This document shows, in pieces, positions 1 through 1,246 of a stretch of 1,518 bases of DNA (positions are counted from its first letter, which is position 1; each line of letters starts with the position of its first letter). This DNA is from Naegleria gruberi (taxonomy: Eukaryota). The stretch lies in assembly GCA_000004985.1 (NCBI GenBank), contig GG739396.1, one strand, 5' to 3'. A program made the position numbers and the translations under genes. Under the pieces are notes generated by a model. That model was not told the DNA's origin. It searched no databases and was given only the letters and a program-made list of their open reading frames with translations.

Positions 1-40
1 CATCAGGTAAAATCACTTCCGAACATTTCCCTATTGTTTA

Positions 41-235
41 TCATGATGATAGGTACATGTATATTTTCAACATGTACATGGACCATATCTCAACATGTAC
101 TTCACCAACTTGAAAAATGTCTTTCATCACTACTATTCAAATACATAATAAACAATATATTTATTATCAGTTTTTCATCATTTTGTGTTTTTGCCAACTT
201 CGGGTTATTCATGGTCACCAATCATGATTCATGCC
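41..235 (+). repeat. Left arm of the long inverted repeat (5' TIR)
   Basis: Reverse-complement match to 1049..1246. Identity is highest in 48..170 and decays towards the inner end near 235. Confidence 0.8.
52..103. repeat. Sub-terminal direct repeats with a palindromic ACATGTAC core, three copies per arm; mirror set at 1182..1233
   Basis: Left arm: ggtacatgta (52..61), tcaacatgtacatgg (67..81) and tcaacatgtacttc (90..103), spaced about 15-23 bp apart. Right arm: gtacatgttga, ccatgtac and acatgtacc at 1184..1233. The ACATGT and GTAC cores are each their own reverse complement. Confidence 0.55.
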
Positions 236-581
236 AAAAGTACACAGCCAATCATCTTGAAACATTAGTAAACTTTTATTAGTACTATTGTAGATGTACC
301 ATATCAATTATTTCGTCTTGTTTCGTTGAAATCATGAAGATTTTGATTTTTCTGTTTTTAATTAAATTTCACATCACCTACATTTCTCCTATGATGAAAA
401 GTAAATAGGAAGGATGTAAGCAATACATAGTCGATACTCTATTCATTGTTTGCTGTTTTATGGTGTATTCGAGATTTTGAAATTTTGAGAAATATCCAGA
501 GGTAATTCACCAAATAATTATAATTCCTCTTTAAATGAAATGAGGAGGGATTCATGCTATGATTATTTGGAAGAGCCACAT

Positions 582-681
582 AGATTTTGGATACTATCTG
601 AACTGAAATGAGGTAGAAAGATTTGGATACTATCTGAACTGAAATTAGAAAGATAGATTTGGATACTATCTGAACTGAAAT
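582..681. repeat. Tandem direct repeat, three copies of a unit of about 27 bp (agattt(t)ggatactatctgaactgaaat) with 9-bp linkers, period 36-37 bp
   Basis: Copies at 582..609 (one extra T), 619..645 and 655..681 are identical apart from the extra T. Linkers are gaggtagaa and tagaaagat. A possible partial upstream unit, tgaaatgagg (537..546), echoes the junction tgaaatgagg at 603..612. Confidence 0.85.
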
Positions 682-1048
682 TGAGATATTGAAATAATAA
701 ATTGTACAGAGAGAGAATATATTACTGGGAATCTATCTTCTTCTAATGAATGTTTTTCATCCCTTATTCATTGAATAAAATAGTAAAGTATCACAAATAT
801 TAAAAGTAATATATCCAATAGTGAAAATTACAGTAAAAGATAATTATCTGGTAGAGAATGGATAAATGACATGCTATTCGTGATGTTTCAGTGAGAATTC
901 AATATCCACATCATGAGAAAAACAATAAAAACATGAAAATATCAGCATCATGATTTTCACAAATCATGCTACAAGACTTGAAATTATACATTTAATAACA
1001 TAATAAACATTATGAATTGTTGTTTTATTGTTGTTTGATTTGTAATTG

Positions 1049-1246
1049 GGCTATGAATCAACTCTGGTAGCATGAAATATCGGAACTTGGTAAATTGACA
1101 ACATGATGAAAATCTGATAATAAATATGATGTTTATTATCTATTTAAATAGTAGTACTAAAAGACATGATTCAAGTTGGTGAAGTACATGTTGAGTTATG
1201 GTCCATGTACTTTTTCAAAATTCACATGTACCTATCCCTATCATAA
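1049..1246 (-). repeat. Right arm of the long inverted repeat (3' TIR)
   Basis: Reverse complement of 41..235. Examples: caagttggtgaagtacatgttgagttatggtccatgtac (1172..1210) against gtacatggaccatatctcaacatgtacttcaccaacttg (73..111); tagtactactatttaaatagataataaaca in rc against catcactactattcaaatacataataaaca (126..154). Confidence 0.8.

Follow-up and report, generated by a model that had tools for sequence, protein, structure and literature searches.

The window, by which we mean the whole 1,518-bp stretch of DNA analysed here (29% G+C), is dominated by a single unit of about 1.2 kb bounded by two long arms that are inverted copies of one another. At their full extent in a gapped alignment, the left arm occupies 43..374 on the + strand and the right arm 913..1244 on the - strand, with an ungapped match that extends out to 38 on one side and to 1246 on the other. 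Each arm has an outer core in which the alignment to its partner is free of indels, 48..215 on the left and 1069..1236 on the right, and it is this outer core that is probably the true TIR. Between the arms lies a non-palindromic, non-coding segment of 538 bp (375..912), the loop of the foldback, in which a tandem-repeat search identifies a 36-nt minisatellite of 2.8-3 copies (586..693, + strand). Two clusters of a short motif, CATGTAC or its complement GTACATG, lie near the ends of the unit, at 53..100 on the left and 1184..1231 on the right.

The inverted repeat is far above chance. An ungapped repeat search of the window returns inverted arms at 38-213 and 1071-1246 (176 nt, 83% complementary), and when the left part is aligned locally, with gaps, to the right part in reverse complement, the score is 231, where 200 shuffles score 25.6 +/- 2.6 and never exceed 36. 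The gapped alignment pairs 43-374 with 1244-913 (258 matches in 344 columns), and its inner portion, a collinear extension of 274-374 against 913-1011, is significant by itself (score 39; dinucleotide shuffles 21.5 +/- 2.9, maximum 33). We therefore take each arm to be about 330 bp long, so that the arms make up 55% of the length of the 1.2-kb unit. The original prediction had placed the arms at 41..235 and 1049..1246 with roughly 85% identity and about 810 bp enclosed between them. Its outer coordinates hold; the identity comes down to 81% (162 of 199 columns), and the enclosed segment is considerably smaller, because the arms run past 235 and 1049 and leave an unpaired centre of only about 538 bp.

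Outward of roughly 43 and 1244, inverted similarity disappears (score 12, against 12.6 +/- 2.3 in shuffles), and the outer boundary of the unit is sharp. The extreme termini are imperfect, with a 3-bp indel and mismatches at 42 and 45-47. Inverted similarity is likewise absent within 375-912 (score 21, against 20.7 +/- 2.9), and with no residual symmetry in this segment we reject the idea that a palindrome, once perfect, extended into the centre. Folding of the unit as a single strand pairs its arms, at -192.5 kcal/mol. The longest perfect duplex between the arms is 26 bp (89-114), and it is contained in a 41-bp duplex with one mismatch that pairs 74-114 with 1170-1210.

Quantitative comparison of the arms reveals that they have not decayed evenly along their length. 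Across the outer core, 141 of 168 positions (84%) are identical and there are no indels at all, whereas the inner arm (216-374) contains 16 gap openings, with an identity of 67% for 216-273 and of 80% of aligned positions for 274-374. The contrast in indels between the outer 168 bp and the inner 159 bp, 0 against 16 gap openings, is highly significant (Fisher p = 6e-6); the contrast in substitutions is marginal (p = 0.07). The earlier observation that the outer 130 bp are better kept than the inner part is thus confirmed (86% identity, against 73% over the inner 65 bp), and some of what was attached to it has to be revised. The stretch 73-111, given as matching at 38 of 39 positions, recounts to 37 of 39, and a block of 95% identity is not exceptional inside the outer arm, as 20% of permutations of the mismatch positions yield a window that is equally clean. 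Nor is constraint on the outer region, as had been proposed, the likelier explanation of its conservation. A dead transposon copy decays evenly after insertion, and the indel contrast therefore suggests that only the outer part, some 170 bp, was a perfect TIR when the unit was inserted. Such uneven decay of the arms is not predicted by a one-step inverted duplication.

The 27 differences in the outer core comprise 7 transitions and 20 transversions, giving a K2P distance of 0.18. RIP-like decay, or decay driven by deamination, would give the reverse of this transversion-rich spectrum, and RIP-type mutation of a duplicated sequence is rejected on the same counts. As a side observation on this spectrum, 10 of the 27 differences are A<->T exchanges. 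Judged from sequence divergence, a K2P of about 0.18 between arms would indicate an old, inactive copy.

Now we consider the short motifs in the arms. CATGTAC or GTACATG occurs seven times in the window, every time within 60 bp of one of the two ends and with a spacing of about 20 bp at the distal end of each arm: the occurrences start at 53, 71, 74 and 94 on the left and at 1184, 1204 and 1225 on the right. The left arm thus has 4 where 0.09 are expected (reached in 0 of 1000 shuffles) and the right arm 3 where 0.08 are expected (reached in 1 of 1000). Since the arms are copies of one another, these two clusters are not independent, and the evidence lies only in the repetition within an arm. 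Inside the left cluster, the 11-mer TCAACATGTAC is also directly repeated without mismatch (67-77 and 90-100). Each arm has about three times as many copies of the tetranucleotide CATG as expected (8 and 9, for an expectation of 2.6; 0 of 500 shuffles), and this enrichment is absent outside the arms, with 2 against 2.1 expected in the centre and none in the flanks. The layout of the motifs is that of subterminal transposase-binding sites, and by analogy we infer that they may have been bound by a transposase.

Several other recurrences were seen in the window. A partly palindromic motif, ATCATGA(T), occurs eight times with both strands counted, with sites at 40-47, 221-228, 331-337, 910-916 and 947-954, one of them at the very left terminus and others at the inner arm borders; its mirrored copies are not all kept in the right arm, and a layout of IR/DR type is not established. 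Weak direct similarity links 116-152 (AATGTCTTTCATCAC...) to 749-787 (score 29, against 22.2 +/- 2.6; reached by 8 of 300 shuffles), and may be the trace of an old sub-repeat, or chance. Two recurrences were considered as signs of a larger duplicated flank and rejected: TTCCGAACA, present at 17-25 and 1294-1302, is at chance level by alignment tests, and so is the arm-core 11-mer CACCAACTTGA, which recurs at 1481-1491 in the right flank.

The centre of the unit has its own tandem repeat and nothing that looks like a gene. A 24-nt core of the minisatellite, TTTGGATACTATCTGAACTGAAAT, is exact in all three copies, and the midpoint of the array (636-640) falls close to the axis of the inverted repeat (643.5), a coincidence noticed post hoc and expected by chance about 2% of the time. 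The longest ORF in the window, 82 aa, runs across the left arm; within the centre no ORF exceeds 46 aa. The original prediction of no coding capacity is therefore upheld, with no ORF above 82 aa and nothing protein-like under alternative genetic codes. Under code 4 (TGA = Trp) a frame of 184 codons opens across the right arm (844-1395, +); we rejected it as coding, its composition being rich in W, C and H and not protein-like, and it has no homologue. Six-frame translations match nothing in Pfam (best E = 0.14), the 82-aa arm ORF has no homologue in a collection of 5.8 billion proteins, all 44 open frames of at least 24 aa, concatenated, likewise have none among 5.8 billion proteins, and an exact look-up of five ORFs of the window in a gene-position index gives no match. 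Searches for RNA are equally empty, with no Rfam match at E <= 1 and no tRNA found by ARAGORN, and a structured RNA or a tRNA-derived SINE was rejected on this ground. The window is depleted in CpG (observed/expected 0.31, from small counts of 10 CpG against 32 expected), with GpC at 0.43 and TpG/CpA at 1.43; as far as base composition can tell, this dinucleotide signature appears to resemble that of a CpG-methylated eukaryotic genome. Along with 1.5 kb free of any gene, the CpG and TpG/CpA values favour a eukaryotic nuclear origin, and the lack of exact matches in prokaryotic, viral and metagenomic collections points the same way.

Further copies were sought in several collections. The arm cores (26-, 22- and 27-mers) and the 24-nt core of the tandem unit have no exact match in bacterial and archaeal genomes, JGI metagenomes or IMG/VR, collections that do not include the host genome. 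Two degenerate terminal patterns match nothing in viral contigs, blastn in distant mode matches nothing in phages or plasmids, and a literal-sequence search of the literature gives no match. As these collections are without the host genome, the result says nothing on whether the unit is present there as a single copy.

For target-site duplications we enumerated direct repeats around every plausible end position. The best exact candidate is TATCAT, a 6-bp direct repeat at 39..44 and 1239..1244 (both on the + strand) that would delimit an element at 45..1238; it is weak, given that repeats of at least 6 bp arise in 5% of flank shuffles. A 7-bp candidate, TATCATG / TATCATA, agrees at 6 of 7 positions (element 46..1238). 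Candidates of 7-8 bp with at most one mismatch thus exist, and comparable ones are found in 53% of shuffles. Among repeats of 9-11 bp with at most two mismatches, seven candidates were found where about 50% of shuffles give one (49% for 9-10 bp), and the best of 9 bp, TATCATGAT / TATCATAAC, has 7 of 9 positions in agreement, no more than expected by chance. Every TSD candidate is at or near chance level. This weakness is not strong evidence against transposition, because the arms are about 16% diverged and because, in tomato, most MULE copies have no recognisable TSD (PMC3310237, Table 1).

What, then, is this unit? We give about an even chance to the reading that it is a copy, old and no longer active, of a cut-and-paste (class II) DNA transposon that was non-autonomous and had long TIRs, sitting in non-coding DNA of an AT-rich eukaryotic genome with apparent CpG methylation. 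The internal features that favour class II are the sharp outer edge, the motif clusters and the uneven decay of the arms, and it is from such internal features that we infer transposition of the unit itself. The central tandem array and the strong single-strand foldback are, moreover, typical of long-TIR elements. According to this scheme, the unit would have been, while the family was active, a substrate for the transposase of an autonomous relative located elsewhere. The enzyme would have attached to each arm in its outer part, likeliest at the CATGTAC-type motifs 10-60 bp from the ends, after which the two ends would have been paired and the 1.2-kb unit excised and then reinserted. With probably only the outer core perfect at that time, the similarity of the inner ~160 bp would likely reflect an inverted repeat of the family that was older and by then already imperfect, and the centre with its 36-nt minisatellite would be cargo or filler.

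The competing explanations can be weighed against the same observations. A single arm pair with no demonstrable TSD is also what one would see if nothing had ever moved, that is, if about 330 bp had been copied in reverse at a distance of some 540 bp, for instance through a template switch in the course of replication or repair, and had then decayed without function. The high divergence is consistent with such neutral decay, and no other copy was found in the prokaryotic, viral and metagenomic collections (host genome not included). However, a single duplication event should age evenly, which does not agree with an outer 168 bp free of indels next to an inner 159 bp with 16 gap openings, and it leaves unexplained why a short palindromic motif should recur three to four times, about 20 bp apart, right at the distal ends of the arms. 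We consider a never-mobile local inverted duplication unlikely. Alternatively, the arms could be two independent insertions, in opposite orientation, of one dispersed repeat of about 170-330 bp, landing some 540-850 bp apart with host DNA between them. This would account for a centre that is unrelated to the arms and for an inner limit of similarity that is diffuse, and the 16% divergence of the arms is within the range for copies of an old repeat family. Against it, the individual arms lack terminal inverted repeats, a poly-A tail and tRNA-like features, no TSD is seen by eye around either of them, and a 36-nt array on the symmetry axis would be unexpected, subject to the roughly 2% chance of this post hoc observation. 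We regard a pair of independent insertions as distinctly unlikely.

A different kind of explanation concerns function as much as origin: instead of being a transposon relic, or on top of that, the locus could be transcribed into a hairpin RNA of endo-siRNA or proto-miRNA type that is folded and diced. Here the relevant evidence is that the strand folds with its arms paired and that the 26-bp perfect stretch lies within the one-mismatch stretch of 41 bp at 74-114; there is also a precedent in plants, where MITE-derived miRNAs are documented (PMC8862332). The arm complementarity, however, is only 81-84%, the loop is at least 540 bp, Rfam gives no match at E <= 1, and nothing in the sequence requires such a reading, which we consider very improbable. 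Spelled out, it would have a long hairpin transcript whose 74-114 / 1170-1210 stretch is the source of small RNAs, and these would silence a host gene or related copies of the transposon, a model to which we attach very little probability; were it true, a long-TIR element would have given rise to a young locus of hairpin-RNA or proto-miRNA type. In a weaker variant, the unit would represent a long-TIR family not catalogued before, and its subterminal CATGTAC sites would reflect a transposase specificity that had gone unrecognised.

Returning to the transposon reading, the unit is most likely an ordinary, long-dead relic of a long-TIR DNA transposon, larger than first described. Outside annotation it is of little import: if the unit is confirmed, the repeat library of the genome would gain a further decayed, non-autonomous transposon with long TIRs, and the CATGTAC subterminal motifs could help to locate the autonomous partner. 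Long inverted repeats can be fragile, recombinogenic, or sources of small RNAs, and at an arm identity of 81-84% we expect effects of these kinds to be weak.

How does the unit compare with known families of elements? The original prediction described a non-autonomous class II element with long TIRs, and of this the general reading fits the structure, while the more specific labels of MITE and of canonical Foldback element do not. The unit is like a MITE in being non-coding, AT-rich, bounded by inverted repeats and capable of forming a hairpin. The defining features of MITEs are small size and short TIRs (PMC5172404), and the unit, about 1,200 bp in length and with each arm taking up about 170-330 bp, departs from that description on both counts.

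With Foldback-like elements (Drosophila FB, Tetris, Meloidogyne Tm1) the unit shares relatively long arms, a lack of coding capacity and imperfect identity of the TIRs, the two TIRs of one Tm1 copy averaging 93% identity (PMC3169594). A further shared trait is an association with tandem repeats, as in Tetris (PMC4079207). TIRs of the FB type are modular, with tandem sub-repeats in variable number, as in motif C of Tm1 (PMC3169594) and in TIR-220 of Tetris (PMC4079207). Here the unit differs, in that its only clear array is central and the evidence for sub-repeats in its arms is marginal. TRF at a minimum score of 30 reports no array in 38-374 and two tiny ones, with 9- and 11-nt periods, in 913-1040; the outer arms are without a tandem array, and it is on this that the canonical Foldback label fails. 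Alignments of outer against inner arm are marginal (reached by 6-33 of 300 shuffles), and duplication within an arm is limited to an 11-nt motif. Foldback-like elements have a Mutator-type TSD of about 8-10 bp; the candidates of 9-10 bp found here carry two mismatches and arise in 49% of shuffles. As for Meloidogyne Tm1 in particular, membership of that family was considered and rejected, as its TIR motifs CCTACCC and CGATTCAGTATCGC (PMC3169594) were not seen on reading the window by eye.

Elements of Tc1-like IR/DR type are a further point of comparison, with a TA target duplication, inverted repeats of about 200-250 bp and a binding site that is directly repeated, once at the outer end of each inverted repeat and once at its inner end. 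TA does flank both ends of the unit (39-40 and 1244-1245), which is trivial in AT-rich DNA. The octamer ATCATGAT is confined to the left arm, where it is found at 40-47 and 221-228, and its inner copy has no preserved counterpart in the right arm.

The unit is like Galileo and the P superfamily in its long TIRs and in having predicted subterminal sites tens of bp inside its ends. The TSD of Galileo is 7 bp, and with respect to the 7-8-bp TSD of the P superfamily and Galileo, the 7-bp candidate of the unit, TATCATG / TATCATA, is at chance level. At the left end, CATGATGA (42-49) agrees with what we take to be the opening 8 nt of the P-element TIR in D. melanogaster, which is a lead only. This CATGATGA end is not mirrored on the right, where the end is TATGATAG, and with P-like ends the flanking 8-mers differ, TTGTTTAT against ACTTGACC. 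In Galileo, where subterminal and repeated sites for the transposase are documented within long TIRs, the proximal THAP footprint covers +63 to +80, and additional sites lie farther inside (PMC3688188); the predicted sites of the unit would have a similar layout.

Finally, non-autonomous MULEs with long TIRs have arms of 100-500 bp with transposase-binding sites, a non-coding interior and a size of 1-2 kb, and the TIRs of Mutator itself carry a binding site for MURA (PMC3310237). For the TSD that defines these elements, 9-11 bp with at most two mismatches, the candidates of the unit are at chance level. Its likeness to non-autonomous MULEs is in the TIR, which falls within 100-500 bp both for the core (168-176 bp) and at the full extent of about 330 bp, in the non-coding interior and in the size of about 1.2 kb. 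In its working, the unit resembles long-TIR non-autonomous elements, namely MULE derivatives, Foldback-like elements and Galileo.
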